This document shows positions 3,897 through 45,189 of a DNA stretch of 64,000 nt, in pieces. Below the pieces are notes generated by a model. That model did no database searches. It was not told the origin of the DNA and worked only from the letters and a program-made list of their open reading frames with translations. A program made the position numbers and the translations under genes. The stretch is from Candidatus Lloydbacteria bacterium RIFCSPHIGHO2_02_FULL_50_18. GTDB lineage: Bacteria; Patescibacteriota; Minisyncoccia; Phycocordibacterales; UBA6899. How positions within the stretch are numbered: position 1 is the first letter of the stretch; each line of letters opens with the position of its first letter. The DNA is taken from contig MHLM01000001.1 of assembly GCA_001821395.1 (NCBI GenBank), forward strand, positions 128,001-192,000. Direction: 5' to 3'.

Positions 3897-3899
3897 AGC

Positions 3900-3968
3900 T
3901 GCGGGACTTGGAGTCGAACCAAAATTGACGGATTCAAAGTCCGCTGTCCTACCATTAGACGATCCCGC
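3900..3968 (-). tRNA. tRNA-Gln (anticodon TTG)
   Basis: Reverse complement reads GCGGGATCG..GCGGA-CTTTGAA-TCCGT..TTTGG-TTCGACT-CCAAG-TCCCGC-A. Cloverleaf has a 7-bp acceptor, anticodon loop CTTTGAA and T-loop TTCGACT. Confidence 0.8.
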
Positions 3969-4046
3969 AATAACAGGATAATAGCATTTTATATACGAAA
4001 GACAAAAAAACCGCCGTTACTACGGCGGTGACTGCTTCAACCGATA

Positions 4047-27530: not shown

Positions 27531-27637
27531 GGCAGGATTCGAAGCCGTTCTCCCATGTTTTTGAGCGATGGCTTTGCATCGTGAAAAAATGGGCGACATT
27601 GTTTACTTGCGAACAAACCGACCCTATGGTCGGTTTT
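27531..27637 (+). repeat. tRNA-3'-end-derived repeat unit (Tyr locus, copy 2, ending in a terminator-like hairpin)
   Basis: The first 33 nt (GGCAGGATTCGAAGCCGTTCTCCCATgTTTtTGA) are nearly identical to the unit after tRNA-Lys at 40785. The unit ends with aaaccgaccctatggtcggtttt. Confidence 0.55.
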
Positions 27638-27663
27638 ACGTATGGTGTCCAGATATATGCCCT

Positions 27664-39830: not shown

Positions 39831-39902
39831 GGCGTAGTGGCGAAGTGGTAACGCATAGATCTGCAAAATCTACATGCACCGGTCCGATTCCGGTCTACGC
39901 CT
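39831..39902 (+). tRNA. tRNA-Cys (anticodon GCA), discriminator U73, unusual T-loop TCCGATT
   Basis: GGCGTAG..TAGAT-CTGCAAA-ATCTA..ACCGG-TCCGATT-CCGGT-CTACGCC-T. Confidence 0.65.
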
Positions 39903-39975
39903 CCCTAAAACATTTTGTTGCAAAATGTTCGGGCGATCATTTTGCAACAAAATGATTTAGCCATGAACAAATGCT

Positions 39976-40056
39976 GCCCGGGTGGTGAAATGGTATACAC
40001 AGGAGACTTAAAATCTCCCGTCGCAAGGCATGTGGGTTCGACTCCCACCCCGGGCA
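39976..40056 (+). tRNA. tRNA-Leu (anticodon TAA), long variable arm
   Basis: GCCCGGG..GGAGA-CTTAAAA-TCTCC-long arm-GTGGG-TTCGACT-CCCAC-CCCGGGC-A. Confidence 0.8.
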
Positions 40057-40118
40057 CAAAGTAAATAAATCCCTGATGGGATTTATTTACTTTGTGCCCG
40101 GGAGAAAGCAAGCTGCCT

Positions 40119-40221
40119 TGCTTTCGCGTGGGAGTCGAAGCCCGTTTCGTTATTTGCGAAGAATTCCTATTCTGAGAAAATCGAAATGGGGTGCTGACCC
40201 AGCAAAGATCGAACCTCCCAC
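40119..40221 (+). repeat. tRNA-3'-end-derived repeat unit (Leu-TAA locus)
   Basis: Starts GTGGGAGTCGAAGCCC, has internal AAGAATTCCTATTCTGAGAAAATCGAAATGGGGTGCTGACC and ends GATCGAACCTCCCAC. The ends GTGGGAG and CTCCCAC are complementary. Confidence 0.55.
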
Positions 40222-40643
40222 GTTAATAGTGTAAAATGAGTCAATGAATAAAAAGATCGTCGCATCACTGACTCTCTCAATCGTTGTTTCATTTCTGATA
40301 ATAGTTACTGTTTCGAATTATTTTGCTGAGAAAGAAATAGCGAACCAGCGCTCTGAATACACAACTCGAGGAATAGCCTTTGGCGAAACTCTTGCCCCGT
40401 AGGCATACCTTTTCCATATGCATGCATGGGGCTTTGTGTTCGTGAAACCAATATAAAAAATTTGCTTGTAGATGTGGTGATCTTTTGCATTCCCACATAC
40501 ATTCTTGTCTATGCTTTACTTGTTTTGATAGCCAAAAGAAGATCTCGAATAGGTGACGTTTCATCAAACGTAAATTAGCCCCAGTGTTCGAATCTATTGC
40601 GAATCTTCCTTGATTTGCTATGATAGCGAAGTTAGGGAAAATT

Positions 40644-40719
40644 GCCTTCGTAGCTCAGTTGGTAGAGCAGCTCGCTCTTAACGAGACGGTCGCAGGTTCG
40701 AATCCTGCCGGGGGCACCA
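40644..40719 (+). tRNA. tRNA-Lys (anticodon CTT), CCA encoded
   Basis: GCCTTCG..CTCG-CTCTTAA-CGAG..GCAGG-TTCGAAT-CCTGC-CGGGGGC-ACCA. The acceptor 3' end lies in a long palindrome that contains a terminator hairpin. Confidence 0.85.
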
Positions 40720-40784
40720 TAAAAAAATCCGCGACAAGCGGATTTTTTTATGGTGCCCCCGAAGAAGTGCCCTGCGGCACTTCT

Positions 40785-40881
40785 GGCAGGATTCGAAGCC
40801 GTTCTCCCATATTTCTGAATGATTCATATCATGAGGAAATGGGAAACGGGTACTGACGCAGTAGGCGTCGAAACTCCTGCC
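40785..40881 (+). repeat. tRNA-3'-end-derived repeat unit (Lys locus)
   Basis: Starts GGCAGGATTCGAAGCCGTTCTCCCATATTTCTGAA, has internal GGGTACTGACGCAGTAGGCG and ends TCGAAACTCCTGCC. Terminal inverted repeats are about 17 nt. Confidence 0.55.
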
Positions 40882-41090
40882 GTGAGATTTCAAAAGACTG
40901 AGTATATTTCGCATGCCTGCGCATGCAGGTCTTCAAAATACGAAACCCAACATGCAGAGCTTGTCTTCGTGTCCCCAATGGCATCGGTGTGATTTCGCAC
41001 TTGCGAACAAGTCTATGAGAACCCAACTGATGTCGGTTTATTCTTCCACTTCCCTTTTATCCAAATTCCAGTACTATAGCCCTACACCCT

Positions 41091-41172
41091 GCCCAGGTGG
41101 CGTAATTGGTAGCCGCGCCAGTCTTAGGAACTGGTCTCGCAAGAGGTGGAGGTTCAAGTCCTCTCCTGGGCA
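41091..41172 (+). tRNA. tRNA-Leu (anticodon TAG), long variable arm
   Basis: GCCCAGG..CCAGT-CTTAGGA-ACTGG-long arm-GGAGG-TTCAAGT-CCTCT-CCTGGGC-A. Confidence 0.8.
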
Positions 41173-41226
41173 CAAAGAAAACCGCGTAAGCGGTTTTTGT
41201 GTGCCCAGAGCGACTGAATACTACAA

Positions 41227-41333
41227 AGAGTACTTCATTTTTCTAAAGCAGAATACTGCTAAGAAAAATTGGTCGCACCACAGAGAGTACTTCATTTTTC
41301 TAGAGCAGAATACTGCTAAGAAAAATTGGTCGC
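41227..41333 (+). repeat. tandem direct repeat, 2 x 50 bp (period 57 bp), nested inside an 8-bp inverted repeat (cgactgaa / ttcagtcg)
   Basis: agagtacttcatttttcta[a/g]agcagaatactgctaagaaaaattggtcgc occurs twice with a single mismatch. Confidence 0.7.
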
Positions 41334-41347
41334 TGCTTCAGTCGCGC

Positions 41348-41430
41348 GAGAGGACTTGAAGCCGTTCTCCTGTATTTTTGAAGATTTCTTAATCTGACAG
41401 GTAGCCCAAATCTTGCACGCCAGTCTCTAC
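41348..41430 (+). repeat. tRNA-3'-end-derived repeat unit (Leu-TAG locus)
   Basis: Starts GAGAGGACTTGAAGCCGTTCTCC (shares the GAAGCCGTTCTCC core with the Lys and Tyr units) and ends GCCAGTCTCTAC. Confidence 0.5.
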
Positions 41431-41458
41431 GTAATCATCATGGATAGATTCATGATGA

Positions 41459-44400
41459 TCATTCATTTCCCATCAATTCGTTTATTTTAGCCGAAGTGGT
41501 TTTACCAACATATCCGGTCCCCCTAACAAGACCCCAGGGCGCTAAAACATCTTCGGTATATTTTTCTTGGAATTTTATAACTGCTTTATAAGTCAAGAGG
41601 CCGAAATAATCAGTTTCCTTACCCGGAGAGCCAACACCCGAATCAGCCAATCGAGTATCGGGGTCGGAATTGAGGAAAATTTGCAAGCGTTTTATGTCTG
41701 CATTTGTTTGTCGGTATTGTCGGTATTGAGTAAATGGGTTAGTAAATGGCAAAATATTTATTCGCAAATTTTCCGTTACAGTAGTACCCGATCTTAGAAC
41801 GATTATGCTTGAAGCAGTATCTGATGATCTGCCGTAGGCAGTGTAAAATTTAACATAAACGGTATATTGTCCATCCGGACAGATTAGATTTTTAAGTGTA
41901 CCGCCAAATTTTGAGCATAAGTCCCATAGCTTGAAGGCGACATAATCTTCTCGGCTGGCATCAGTGAAATCTCCAGTCATTGAAATCGCCAATTGCTTGA
42001 TGTCCATTCCCGCATTAAAACCAAGTATGACATTTCTATTTGACGTTGTGCTTGATCCGGAATTTACAAAAACCTTAAATCCACCTGTCGGCGTTATCGG
42101 CAAATTACTCCAACCTGCTGGCATACCACCTCCCCCACTTGAAGTTACAGCAGGAGTTACTAAGACGGCGTCCCAAATCAAAGTAAAATTATGAGAGTTG
42201 GAATTTCCGACGTTATCTGAGGCAGTAAAACTGATTACATAAGTTCCGTTAGTATCGACTGAGATAGTTGTGCTCGACGCGGTACCGTCTCCAAACGTTA
42301 CCGCACCAGGTCCTGAAACTTTTGCCCACTGATAAGTTGAAGCGTTCATATCGCTCCCGGAATCTGAAGCTGCAGCGACTTGAGTAAATGTAGCTCCTTT
42401 ATTTTGATCATCTCCAGCACTAATGGTGGGATTTTGTTTATCAATTTTTATGATATTTGACGATTCTGTGTTCTCAATATTCCCTAAATTATCTACTGAG
42501 TAGTACCTTATATATTGCTGACAACTAGAACCTGAGTCACACGACAAACTAACACTTGTTCCTTCAGTGGTTGGCACGCAGCTATTATTAGTGTCAACGC
42601 AATAATATGTATGCGCTATTCCGCTTCCGCTATTATCAGACGGGTTCAAATTAATAGTAAGATCTGAACTATGCCAATTATCATCAGCATTATCGGTTGT
42701 AGTTGGAGACGTATTTCCCACTACAATCGATTCATTAAATGAAACGCTCCAATCGTAAAGGGGCAGTCCGGTACTGCCTGAAGATGGCGATACGCTCGTA
42801 TCTGTATCTCGAATATTACCACCTACGGCAGTAGCATCGCCGGCTTGTGCGCACCAAGATGCAACAACATAGCAACTCCAGGCGTATCTCAAATGTTGAT
42901 CTGTGCCAGTCGGCGTATCACTTAGAGTAATTTTTACTTGACTGTTATTATTTATAAGTTCTACTGAATCTATTGAAACACTATTGCCACCAGCCTGTGT
43001 AAATTCAAACCCATAATCAGGACGCTCCGCAACGTTGGCAGTATCAATAGCTAATGTTCCATAAGGGATATTATAATTGGCGATTATTACGTTACTCGAT
43101 CTCAAAATCGATGATGGCATGAGGGGATTCCAAGTCTGTCCCTCAAACAATACTTTATCCATAACTTTTGCAAACATCTCTCCCATTTTTTTTCTTGGGT
43201 ATTCACGTCCATATGGAGCTTGTCCGACCGATAATGATATTGATACTTTGGCTGGACCAAAATAATTTTTCCGGGATTATCTATATGCGCGTTTAATTGT
43301 GCTTCAGCTATTTCCCCCGTTGGCGCGGAATTCATTTGATTTATAAATAATGGGATAGTGTCGTTACGGCTAGTCAGAGTATTAAGATCGGTTTCATAAT
43401 CCAACTGCCATTCTTCAAGATAACTTTTATAATTTGCTCCGGCACCACCCACATAATCACTTTCTCCGTGAATTGAAGTAACTGCGATGGGTCGATACAG
43501 CTCGCCTAGCGTACTCTCAACGTAAGTTTTAGTTACACTTGCCTGTGTCATACCCTTGTTATACCAAGATGTCCCCTTTTTTAAACCACTGTAGTTAGTT
43601 CCACCATGTGCATGGAGGCCAACGACAATTGGACTGAGAAGATCTTCATACGCATGAAGGCTATTGGCCATTCCTGATGAGATTGTTTCCACATTACCGC
43701 CCTCTCCTTGCCCAGACTCAATTAATGGTATGAGCGGAGCAGCTGTTCCTTCAACTCCGGGGGTAAGCATAAGATTATTATAAGGCTGCGTAACGCTTAT
43801 AGGCGGTGAAGCATAATAAACTACGGCCAGACTTTGCCCCGTTGACAATATCTGATAGTAGGTTGTTTGCTCATTTACCGCGAAGGAAACAGTCCCGGAA
43901 TTATTTGTAAGAGCAGGAGTTGCTGACACGCTTATTATATGAGGAGACCCACTCGTACTTGTAGGTGTATAGGTGAATGTTTTTGCATCTGACGAACCGG
44001 ACCACGACAACGAAGTTGGCGCAAACGTTCCGGCACCAGTTGATGACGATGTAATCGTGCCGGTATATTCGCCATCAGGCGTCACAATAAAATTACCGGA
44101 TGCTGTAGCCATCGTGCCAGACGACGGGCCGGCAAAAGTAAATGATGTAGCGGGTGGCGCAAGGGTGACGACTGAAAATTCAGAACTGTCTGCGGTTGCA
44201 GGGACGCCATCGGTAACCCTGAGCTTGTAATAATAAATCGTAGCGGGAGATAGTCCGGTATCTGATAATGTGAGCGATGTTTGTCCGCTTAAAATATTCC
44301 CAACACCCGGCGTAAAACCGCTGCTTATGCTACGGTACCACTGATAAATATAGGGTGCTATTCCTCCTGTTGCTTCCGAAGATGAAAGATCGATACTTGA

Positions 44401-45189
44401 ATCTGTTTTCTCCATTAAACTAATTGAGCCGGCGCTAAAAGTAGAAAACGGATATTCAAGCCCTGTGCCCGAATTGTATAAACTCGTGATCTCATCTGGA
44501 GTTAGTATTTTTTTCCAAAAACCAACAGAATCAATGCGCCCGTCCAAATACATTGTAGCACCAGAAGCCTGAAATCTCCCGATTGTAAATGCTGCGCTAG
44601 TATTTGCCGGCTCGGAACCGGCGACGCTTGTATTGGTATACGTATTATTAACAGTTATGGTATTAGTATGAGTGGTAGCATTGTGGCTACATGTGAGAAA
44701 ATACCATTGGCCAATCTGGACTCCCCCCGTTGGAGTCACATATGCATCTACCGATGGAAAAGTAGAACAGCGAAACGTGTCGGAACTAACACCGTAATAC
44801 AAAGCATATTCTCCGGTGCTGCCATATTTTCCAACAAACGTCATATTTGTTGATTTGGTATCAAGATAGACCCATGCAGAAATAGTAAAATCTATACCGC
44901 CTATACTCAAACTGGGATTATCAACGATGCTTAAATATTCTGAGTTAGCCATAGTTAACTGCGCAGAATTTCCAAGTTTGCCAACTCCTTGAGTCACCGT
45001 ATTGTTGTCGGTCAGATTATTTGAACTAACACTATCTGCTCGCGTACCACTTACCTCATCTAATTTCCAATAAGAAATAAGTGATGTGGATAAATCCGTT
45101 GCAAAAACATGAGAGAAAAATTGTGTGTACAACGACACCGAAATTAAAAGCAGGGCAAATATTTTAAAATTTTTTCGAAAGGTTTTCAT
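41459..45189 (-). CDS. large secreted surface protein (about 1250 aa if read through): signal peptide, LamG-like lectin domain, Ig/FN3-like region, SASA/sialate-O-acetylesterase-like (SGNH) domain, beta-rich repeats, C-terminal peptidoglycan-binding domain. Interrupted by a frameshift at an A8 tract at 43186-43193, giving ORFs 43102-45189 and 41459-43186.
   Basis: N-terminus MKTFRKNFKIFALLLISVSL is a signal peptide. LamG segments FTISAWVYLD and GRIDSVGFWKKILTPDEITSLYNSG. Esterase motifs GQSLAV, HGESDY and DKLHMD. Adding one A to the coding-strand A8 run joins ...DKLHMDVNTQEKK to MGEMFAKVMDKV..., restoring the SASA C-terminal consensus. C-terminal PG_binding-like segment DIKRLQIFLNSDPDTRLADSGVGSPGKETDYFGLLTYKAVIKFQ. 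Confidence 0.55.

Follow-up and report, generated by a model that had tools for sequence, protein, structure and literature searches.

Why does a strongly reduced bacterial genome keep long, structured sequence directly behind its transfer RNA (tRNA) genes? The question is raised by a cluster of four tRNA genes in Candidatus Lloydbacteria bacterium RIFCSPHIGHO2_02_FULL_50_18 (assembly GCA_001821395.1), a groundwater member of the candidate phyla radiation (CPR). We analysed 64,000 nucleotides of contig MHLM01000001.1 (positions 128,001 to 192,000), hereafter the window; coordinates without a locus label refer to it. tRNA genes are among the most conserved loci of any genome and CPR genomes are strongly reduced. 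Nevertheless, 170–300 nt of structured, covarying sequence are kept behind most tRNA genes of this lineage. A preliminary description of the cluster had pointed to repeat units, palindromes and small hairpins between the tRNAs. We found that they belong to a family of tRNA-coupled structured modules that extends across the lineage and comes with two types of core (A and B); its copies are tailored to their own tRNA.

A module consists of four parts. The first is a terminator-like hairpin 3' of the tRNA and on the same strand. The second is an antisense copy of the last ~21 nt of the tRNA (discriminator, acceptor 3' strand, T-stem 3' strand and T-loop), interrupted in this lineage at the acceptor/T junction by a small hairpin, H2. 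A core of ~70 nt follows, and the fourth part is a sense copy that pairs with the antisense copy as helix P1. Each repeat unit starts with the antisense of the T-loop and T-stem 3' strand of the upstream tRNA and ends with the sense copy. The type-A core (~70 nt) is conserved and contains two hairpins. Complete units fold into a three-way junction, in which the tRNA-derived helix P1 encloses two hairpins, the long P2/P3 and the short P4, and unpaired residues are conserved after P1 (GAA), between P2 and P4 (CUG) and in the P4 loop (GUA). The preliminary description had taken the units for generic repeats; the repeats are real, but they and the palindromes derive from the 3' end of the adjacent tRNA, copied in antisense and in sense, a relationship that defines the element. 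In the tRNA-Leu(TAA) unit, P1 consists of the 5' strand GTGGGAGTCGAA, antisense to the T-loop and T-stem 3' strand, and the 3' strand tcgaacctcccac. In the tRNA-Lys unit, the P1 5' strand (GGCAGGATTCGAA) is the reverse complement of the 3' half of the T-arm. The tRNA-Leu(TAG) unit keeps its P1 5' strand (GAGAGGACTTGAA) and P2/P3, and its 3' half is decayed. One unit had been assigned to each of these three tRNAs, which is correct for Leu-TAA and Lys, whereas only a 5' fragment is left behind Leu-TAG. A complete orthologue of this fragment was found in a related locus (L089, 11661–11755, 80 bits).

How closely a unit matches its own tRNA was counted in 25 units with an identified upstream tRNA. 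The P1 5' strand agreed with the cognate T-loop and T-stem 3' strand at 12 of 12 positions in 13 units and at 11 or more in 20, compared with a mean of 8.6 of 12 for non-cognate tRNAs. The antisense copy always ends at the complement of T54, and the P1 sense strand has a constant 2-nt insertion (bulge) relative to the tRNA. A mimic of the acceptor 5' strand is fixed at 30–33 nt ahead of the unit (7/7 in 12 units), and a copy of the acceptor 3' strand directly after P1 was perfect (7/7) in eight. In about a third of the modules, the P1 sense strand is followed by the acceptor 3' strand, the discriminator and sometimes CCA. Two other derivations of P1 were rejected. Its 5' strand is not a copy of the T-stem 5' strand: at the G.U pair of tRNA-Leu(TAG) it reads AGAGG and is therefore antisense to the T-stem 3' strand. 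Nor is the unit inserted in the T-loop of a duplicated tRNA, as TTCAAGT loops have the reverse complement, ACTTGAA, as left arm. Downstream of 25 control tRNAs of unrelated bacteria, neither an antisense nor a sense copy of the tRNA 3' end exceeded 9 nt within 400 nt; in this lineage, antisense copies of 10–14 nt were present at 11 of 38 tRNAs and sense copies of 10–20 nt at 10 of 38. Chance is excluded as the origin of these copies. The controls came from a scan of species-representative genomes with translation initiation factor IF-2, a protein too conserved for the purpose, which returned mostly unrelated bacteria and, in addition, the synteny with Candidatus Taylorbacteria described below.

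Conservation of the fold was assessed with a covariance model built from six units. An unfiltered search of the window with this model found units only directly after tRNAs and on the tRNA strand, and 1.27 Mb from 80 other bacterial genomes gave zero matches. A decayed unit was sought in the spacers 40222–40643 and 40883–41090, where local alignments were no better than shuffles. In 28 distinct units, 89.2% of the cells were paired, versus 68% in shuffles and 44–56% in slid controls. Compensatory changes occurred at 24 of the 29 base pairs, and both sides had changed in 154 cells versus 44 in shuffles. The tRNA-sense strand folded more stably in 27 of the 28 units, with a mean difference of 4.6 kcal/mol, and the fold z-scores of complete units ranged from −3.6 to −7.8.

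The modules combine a common architecture, cognate specificity, covariation and strand bias with restriction to tRNA trailers and turnover between relatives. The most likely reading, to which we give about an even chance, is a putative read-through structured RNA whose tRNA-mimicking arms double as recombination handles. The RNA would be made by read-through from the tRNA promoter. Its tRNA-derived arms would imitate an acceptor/T helix, and the enzymes of tRNA processing could then cut the RNA out, as is assumed for RttR of Escherichia coli. The arms would also supply homology for unequal crossing-over and for gene conversion with the tRNA. Recombination driven by the arms would account for the matching to the tRNA, tandem multiplication, moves between similar T-arms, and insertions, deletions and inversions.

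Several observations weigh against this reading. The trailer hairpin resembles a bidirectional intrinsic terminator, and because of this the module may be transcribed only rarely. The counts of G.U and A.C pairs were just 42 to 28 (14 to 10 in another count); as such counting was indecisive for the strand, we used the asymmetry in folding energy instead. The five complete units of the window are open: their acceptor 3' copy matches at 3–5 of 7 positions, which makes a tRNA-like closure impossible, and they nonetheless keep a perfect acceptor 5'-strand mimic. The most distant module-bearing relative, L124 (RbfA 46%), has no H2 in its antisense copy, which is one unbroken, perfect 21-mer ahead of a type-B core; the best-conserved partner of the antisense may therefore be the tRNA itself and not the downstream sense copy. 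Finally, selfish DNA would just as typically show patchiness, truncated copies and nested insertions, and the module may be largely selfish.

Pairing with the tRNA itself is central to a different explanation, a cis-acting anti-tRNA device, which we consider improbable. The antisense block would pair with the last third of the upstream pre-tRNA in a duplex of ~40 bp. This duplex would be a substrate for a double-strand-specific RNase and, with the sense strand of the unit competing, would act as a switch in processing or quality control; we would not expect this role to be the correct one either. For tRNA plus module in the window, the minimum free energy (MFE) structure is exactly such a helix, a ~40-bp duplex of the antisense block with the T-loop, T-stem, acceptor 3' strand and trailer (−131 and −121 kcal/mol), with H2 as a side branch. 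It is also in line with this device that the palindrome arms are perfect over 24–25 bp, that more units have a perfect (7/7) acceptor 5'-strand mimic than a perfect acceptor 3' copy (12 versus 8 of 25), that the L124 antisense is contiguous, and that P1 pairs with the tRNA free of bulges but with its own 3' strand only via the 2-nt bulge. Behind genes that do not encode CCA, the antisense mirrors the trailer, so the partner would be the precursor in cis. However, the helix would unfold and probably destroy the tRNA, and co-transcriptional folding should favour the tRNA. The device also leaves the ~70-nt covarying core, the second core type and the closed, NCCA-tailed forms unexplained. In these closed modules, which have kept the acceptor 3' copy, the MFE structure is an 8-bp acceptor-like stem with a free NCCA tail that encloses H2 and P1, so that the whole has the outline of a tRNA. 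A tRNA-specific cis RNA switch, which either captures the 3' third of the nascent pre-tRNA or closes into an NCCA-ended minihelix, is a tentative idea that we rate as unlikely. The same doubt applies to its proposed roles, namely capture for surveillance, degradation or processing, and a minihelix matured by RNase P, RNase Z or the CCA-adding enzyme; such a minihelix might be recognised by the cognate aminoacyl-tRNA synthetase. If the switch existed, it would add a new RNA-based layer of tRNA biogenesis and control in genome-reduced CPR bacteria and offer a lead for the long-unexplained RttR.

The palindromes behind the last three tRNAs bear on the identity of the pairing partner. As the preliminary description had stated, all three reach into the acceptor 3' end; two are perfect (25 and 24 nt) and the third is 87% complementary. 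In each of them, the acceptor 3' strand and trailer of the upstream tRNA recur in reverse complement as the second arm. Behind tRNA-Leu(TAA), the order is acceptor 3' strand and trailer, terminator-like hairpin, mirrored trailer and the acceptor 5'-strand mimic GCCCGGG (40096–40102), which matches at 7/7 positions and lies 32 nt ahead of the unit. The tRNA-Lys palindrome contains a hairpin composed of an A-tract, a GC stem and a T-tract, and its mimic (GCCCCCG, 40755–40761) likewise matches at 7/7. By eye, this hairpin (aaaaaaatccgc-gacaa-gcggattttttt) fits a bidirectional terminator; a consensus terminator scan listed no trailer hairpins. The Leu genes do not encode CCA, and here the antisense arm mirrors the trailer as it stands in the genome instead of CCA; this leaves only the precursor or the gene as its upstream partner and excludes the mature tRNA. 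The H2 hairpins share a 9-bp stem of highly variable sequence and have a CUGC loop in 19 of 29 cases. The CTGC-loop hairpins claimed earlier are present behind tRNA-Leu(TAA) and tRNA-Lys; the third is built alike except for 114 nt inserted into its loop. The coordinates of these and the other features are given in Table 1. ARAGORN and the Rfam tRNA model (55–68 bits) agreed on the four tRNAs of the cluster, which had been named correctly.

Table 1. Features of the tRNA cluster, of the other module loci in the window, and of type-B units in related loci
Feature	Position	Strand	Remarks
tRNA-Cys(GCA)	39831–39904	+	ARAGORN, Rfam tRNA
tRNA-Cys hairpin (twin palindromes)	39905–39960	+	I1: 27-nt arms, 93% complementary
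tRNA-Leu(TAA)	39976–40057	+	T-arm gtgggttcgactcccac; acceptor 3' strand 40049–40055
Leu-TAA trailer palindrome I2	40049–40073/40078–40102	+	25-nt arms, 100% complementary
H2 hairpin, Leu-TAA	40104–40125	+	gaaagcaag-CTGC-cttgctttc
Type-A unit, Leu-TAA	40128–40221	+	z = −5.0; 92 bits; I7; 12/12 antisense match
Broken gene for protein with two transmembrane segments	40244–40578	+	52-aa open reading frame 40244–40402 and 50-aa open reading frame 40426–40578
tRNA-Lys leader	40591–40643	+	conserved; 84% identity to L089, where it is inverted along with the tRNA
Promoter-like site in tRNA-Lys leader	40597–40624	+	TTGCGA, 16-nt spacer, TATGAT
tRNA-Lys(CTT)	40644–40719	+	CCA gene-encoded; ARAGORN, Rfam tRNA
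Lys trailer palindrome I3	40709–40732/40738–40761	+	24-nt arms, 100% complementary
H2 hairpin, Lys	40763–40784	+	agaagtgcc-CTGC-ggcacttct
Type-A unit, Lys	40785–40882	+	z = −5.3; 94.5 bits; I11 13 nt, 100%
Spacer	40883–41090	+	remnant of small zinc-ribbon open reading frame, then tRNA-Leu(TAG) leader
tRNA-Leu(TAG) leader	41002–41088	+	conserved; 81% identity to L089 11426–11514
tRNA-Leu(TAG)	41091–41173	+	T-stem GGAGG/CCTCT incl. G.U pair
Leu-TAG trailer palindrome I8	41166–41180/41194–41208	+	imperfect: 15-nt arms, 87% complementary
H2 hairpin, Leu-TAG	41210–41345	+	stem gcgactgaa/ttcagtcgc; 114-nt loop insert directly 5' of CTGC
57-nt hairpin element, two tandem copies	41220–41276, 41277–41333	+	95–96% identity
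Truncated type-A unit, Leu-TAG	41346–41431	+	z = +0.6; 13 bits; I15 13 nt, 100%
tRNA-Leu(CAA) locus	21598–22090	+	acceptor-spanning palindrome, CTGC hairpin, two complete tandem type-A units
Leu-CAA type-A units	21752–21845, 21905–21995	+	unit model: 100.6 bits and 82 bits, respectively
tRNA-Trp locus	25383–25625	-	divergent type-B-like unit
tRNA-Tyr locus	27262–27640	+	complete unit 27415–27512, truncated unit 27532–27610
Type-B sites in related loci	L092 5883–6170; L106 ~1340–1490; L110; L102; L124 11383–11500		

The trailer-mirroring arms also bear on a retroelement-like origin, which we regard as very improbable. The antisense block would serve the 3' end of the cognate tRNA as a primer-binding site, like those of LTR retroelements, or the closed CCA end would serve as a start for reverse transcription, and the element would be copied to new loci. 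Behind CCA-encoding genes, the antisense indeed consists of TGG and the complement of the acceptor and T-arm (tRNA-Lys in the window: TGGTGCCCCCG ... GCAGGATTCGAA). Closed modules end in NCCA, and the copy in L118 has ACCA where the tRNA gene has ACTG. However, the antisense of CCA-less genes mirrors the trailer, and H2 interrupts the putative primer-binding site. None of 20 proteins encoded next to modules is a reverse transcriptase, and a study of 95 complete Patescibacteria genomes detected no group II introns (PMC13011429). A primer-binding site for a mature tRNA including CCA was rejected on the grounds of the trailer-mirroring Leu antisense.

Beyond the cluster, the same module occurs in the window after tRNA-Leu(CAA) at 21598, tRNA-Tyr at 27262 and tRNA-Trp at 25554, sometimes with two tandem units; tRNA-Gln (3898–3969, minus strand) has no module. 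Pieces of the type-B core (actcgtgaccaagtc) occur in the spacers of the Leu-CAA locus, which also has a third start resembling P1 at ~22066. At the tRNA-Tyr locus, a GAAG-type loop replaces CTGC in the small hairpin. The tRNA-Trp unit ends with a 20-nt direct copy of the tRNA 3' end (25386–25405), while all other sense copies in the window comprise only the T-arm part. The gene miaA (tRNA isopentenyl transferase; 23383–24282, plus strand) is located between the Leu-CAA and Trp loci, probably by coincidence. Type-B units have the invariant core GGGTCG.G ... hairpin ... GTG.CC, with no match in Rfam. Their outer architecture is like that of type A, with the antisense T-arm first and the copy of the tRNA 3' end last.

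Metagenomes were scanned with a pattern from the unit interior, which is independent of the tRNA, and 19 loci were returned. In the 13 loci with a detected tRNA, the match was downstream of the tRNA (12 were also scored by the unit model). The tRNAs ahead of these units were Val-GAC, Val-CAC, Ser-GGA/CGA/GCT, Gly, His, Tyr, Pro-CGG and Pro-GGG; family-wide, modules follow at least 13 tRNA species. No tRNA was called in five loci (L101, L109, L112, L115 and L117), and the only one in L111 was truncated by the end of the contig. Three of the five contained complete type-A units (L101 1869–1963, L115 4929–5023 and L117 1129–1223) together with the palindrome and CTGC hairpin, and no tRNA or other Rfam RNA was detected upstream of these units. 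The P1 arms of L117 mismatch the upstream sequence. The upstream gene in these three loci may be a decayed or undetectable tRNA.

Comparison with relatives indicated which parts of the cluster are old. A Candidatus Taylorbacteria metagenome-assembled genome, whose IF-2 (51% identical) was the nearest to that of the window, has the same order of infB, rbfA and the Cys, Leu-TAA, Lys-CTT and Leu-TAG tRNAs. There, the four tRNAs lie within 450 nt with plain spacers of 8, 84 and 45 nt, and modules are absent. The tRNA cluster is therefore ancestral and the modules were added. The preliminary description had called the stretch accessory, which does not hold given this conserved order; judged from the sequence comparison, the four tRNAs are core genes and only the material between them is added.

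Closer relatives differed in this added material. In L089 (RbfA 89%), tRNA-Lys is inverted, and the Leu-TAG module is complete and lacks the 57-nt insert. L092–94 (RbfA 76%) have an inverted tRNA-Leu(TAG), spacer lengths that vary between contigs sharing identical RbfA, and tandem type-B units which each end in a perfect 18-nt copy of the tRNA 3' end. In L095/96 (RbfA 69%), 2 kb of open reading frames (ORFs) are inserted and modules are absent. L123 (RbfA 53%) has closed modules with a CUGC-loop H2. Tandem arrays in which each unit ends in a perfect 18–21-nt copy of the tRNA 3' end were found in L092, L108 and L123, and L106 likewise has tandem units with tRNA 3'-end copies. Two modules were hybrids: the tRNA-Ser module of L114 ends in a Lys-type acceptor copy, and the Val-GAC module of L113 has Val-CAC arms. 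Such hybrids point to exchange between tRNAs. The rearrangement hotspot suggested by the preliminary description is borne out by the tRNA-Lys and Leu-TAG inversions, the spacer polymorphism, the 2-kb ORF insertion and the varying copy number of the 57-nt element. A layout shared without variation would have indicated a stable structure; instead, inversions, insertions, deletions and tandem arrays differ between the relatives. In L118 (4660–4864), a direct duplication of ~100 nt upstream of tRNA-Pro(GGG) includes the 5' part of the tRNA (cgggctatcggatagtggtagtctacatgc) and appears to add to the evidence that tRNA loci of this lineage are recombination-prone.

Such turnover would also be expected of a DNA-level element, that is, non-autonomous mobile or recombinogenic DNA in the form of integrative-element scars or of hairpin elements like REP (repetitive extragenic palindromic)/RAYT or IS200/IS605. 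We think this explanation is probably wrong. The structure would then represent single-stranded DNA hairpins for a recombinase, and gene conversion from arm to arm would keep the palindromes perfect, a part of the proposal that seems to us just as unlikely. Like attL and attR, direct repeats of the tRNA 3' end lie on both sides of the units, and tandem arrays, truncated copies and the nested 57-nt hairpin insertion fit an element of this kind. The same is true of the patchy presence and absence among close relatives, the palindromes that are perfect over 24–25 bp and the cargo-like small genes between the tRNAs. As G.T pairs stabilise hairpins of single-stranded DNA too, the strand bias is compatible with it. 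However, the 20 proteins encoded just beyond modules included no integrase, transposase or reverse transcriptase (0/20); most had housekeeping-type domains (cytidine deaminase, peroxiredoxin, MiaA, ABC transporter, RNase Y) and a few had no domain. Module matches were absent from 2.9 million viral contigs and from phage records. The boundary fixed at T54 and the constant 2-nt bulge favour design over scarring, and insertion into the T-loop is excluded by the ACTTGAA left arms. The terminal inverted repeats vary with the tRNA, unlike the ends of miniature inverted-repeat transposable elements (MITEs), and there are zero free-standing copies in the 64 kb; a MITE or REP-type repeat was rejected for the same reasons. 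Scars of attL/attR type share with the modules the 12–21-nt sense copies of the tRNA 3' end downstream of an intact tRNA and the insertions of small genes, but the structured unit of the modules is only 95–170 nt long, always has an antisense copy and has no integrase among the 20 neighbours.

Several known RNA classes were compared with the modules. Rfam detected no family beyond tRNAs for either unit type, at the gathering threshold in the window and ten loci and at E ≤ 10 in the region; sub-threshold matches to microRNA families covered only the long palindromes. A hammerhead or other small ribozyme was rejected, with no motif found by eye and no Rfam match. A k-turn or box C/D motif was rejected too, as the internal loop of P2/P3 is fully Watson–Crick paired in L104 and in the first L114 unit and thus is not conserved as a loop with tandem G.A pairs. 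The modules are not tRNAs or tRNA pseudogenes, since ARAGORN and the Rfam tRNA model called only the genuine tRNAs and no module. Group I introns of Patescibacteria tRNAs are situated in the anticodon loop at position 35/36 (PMC13011429), whereas the modules lie 3' of complete tRNAs and gave no group I match in Rfam. A literature search for an earlier description of such modules in CPR bacteria returned nothing relevant.

The nearest known analogue is the tyrT-distal repeats of E. coli and RttR (Rfam rtT), an sRNA (small RNA) encoded by one such repeat unit (PMC3318445). In E. coli K-12 (NC_000913 1286700–1287240, L121), the annotated RttR is 171 nt long and starts 7 nt after tyrV. Like the modules, the repeats lie directly 3' of the tRNA on the same strand. 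Three of them, 178 nt long, follow one another in tandem, and the last 19 nt of every repeat reproduce the tRNA-Tyr 3' end exactly. All three also contain GGGGAAGGATgaGAA, which agrees with the antisense of the T-loop and T-stem 3' strand at 13 of 15 positions and pairs with the sense copy to close the predicted RttR fold. Homology to the modules was not detectable, as the E. coli repeats scored only ~4.5 bits with the unit model. In contrast to the modules, they show no significant fold stability (RttR, z = −0.7), are confined to a single tRNA locus, and lack the acceptor 5'-strand mimic, the acceptor-spanning palindrome and the H2/CUGC hairpin. The CPR modules differ further in their two conserved cores, strong covariation and association with at least 13 tRNA species. 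The rtT model did not match the modules at the gathering threshold or at E ≤ 10. To our knowledge, the function of tyrT/RttR has been open since 1991.

Excision of a read-through module RNA, as the preferred reading proposes, would have a parallel in tRNA-like acceptor/T-arm mimics such as the tRNA-like domain of transfer-messenger RNA (tmRNA) and the bacterial Y RNA YrlA (PMC4201824); mimics of this type are handled by tRNA-processing enzymes. Closed modules resemble these, since their acceptor-like stem stacks on a helix similar to a T-stem and leaves an NCCA tail free. They differ in that the T-loop is paired or replaced by a three-way junction, that there is no analogue of the D-arm beyond H2, that the acceptor varies with the neighbouring tRNA, that many copies have no 3' acceptor strand, and that Rfam gave no match. 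A functional RNA derived from a tRNA trailer, as the modules would be, is the sRNA sponge 3'ETS-leuZ of E. coli, which is not known to be repeated, to be tRNA-specific in design or to be complementary to the tRNA it comes from. Should the modules be RNAs, they would constitute a new, abundant family of non-coding RNA tied to tRNA processing and a second, richer instance of the tyrT/RttR type. If they are selfish DNA, they would represent a novel type of element, for which the tRNA 3' end is both address and recombination handle, and would account for tRNA clusters as hotspots of inversion, insertion and deletion. On either reading, annotation pipelines currently place spurious small ORFs over modules. 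In the cluster, gene callers predicted proteins of 78 aa (40620–40856) and 148 aa (40913–41359) that run through tRNA-Lys, tRNA-Leu(TAG) and modules, and both calls are spurious.

The tandem duplication noted earlier within an inverted repeat is present in the H2 loop of the Leu-TAG module; its period is 57 nt, not 50 or 51. The duplicated sequence was 100% identical in independently assembled contigs from several samples, and thus it is not an assembly artefact. The number of 57-nt elements varied by strain, with one in L008 (at the same position in the H2 loop), two in the window and zero in L089. The whole Leu-TAG H2 hairpin with its insert had a fold z-score of −4.8 and a single 57-nt copy −2.6. 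In L106 (7584–7639), an intergenic copy stands alone; it shares 84% identity with the window copy, and its stem shows compensatory changes. What is inserted in the H2 loop is thus a small repeat in its own right.

The twin palindromes reported behind tRNA-Cys are present and jointly fold into a single 27-bp hairpin (−26.1 kcal/mol, z = −8.3), which is not a module. Strains L006 and L008 have this hairpin and L089 lacks it. Downstream of this tRNA-Cys we found no antisense or sense copy of its own 3' end, so it is without a module; the orthologous tRNA-Cys of L092–94 does have a module, with a CTGC hairpin and an antisense T-arm.

The decayed gene suspected at 40230–40600 proved to be one gene split into two ORF halves by a single frameshift. 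The frameshift lies in a run of C (40395–40398), where one added C restores an ORF of 111 aa. A full-library HMMER search yielded homologues of 106 and 102 aa, which matched first the 52-aa and then the 50-aa half; once restored, the ORF could be aligned with them over 102 residues free of gaps. The protein has two predicted transmembrane segments and no Pfam domain. This stretch is AT-rich (38.5% GC) and missing from relatives, and an intact homologue sits among ordinary protein genes. We interpret it from its sequence as a recently inactivated gene for a small membrane protein; a homopolymer sequencing error in all assemblies is less likely. The zinc-ribbon remnant in the spacer ahead of tRNA-Leu(TAG) was a weak match (50% over 22 aa) that has lost its cysteines, and the 64-aa ORF is intact in L089.

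Downstream of the cluster, two large surface-type ORFs are encoded on the minus strand (41459–45189). The first (41459–43186, 575 aa) has a PKD domain and the second (43102–45189, 695 aa) a Laminin_G_3 domain, and they share an overlap of 85 nt. In L089, both are missing between the tRNA cluster and the next conserved genes.

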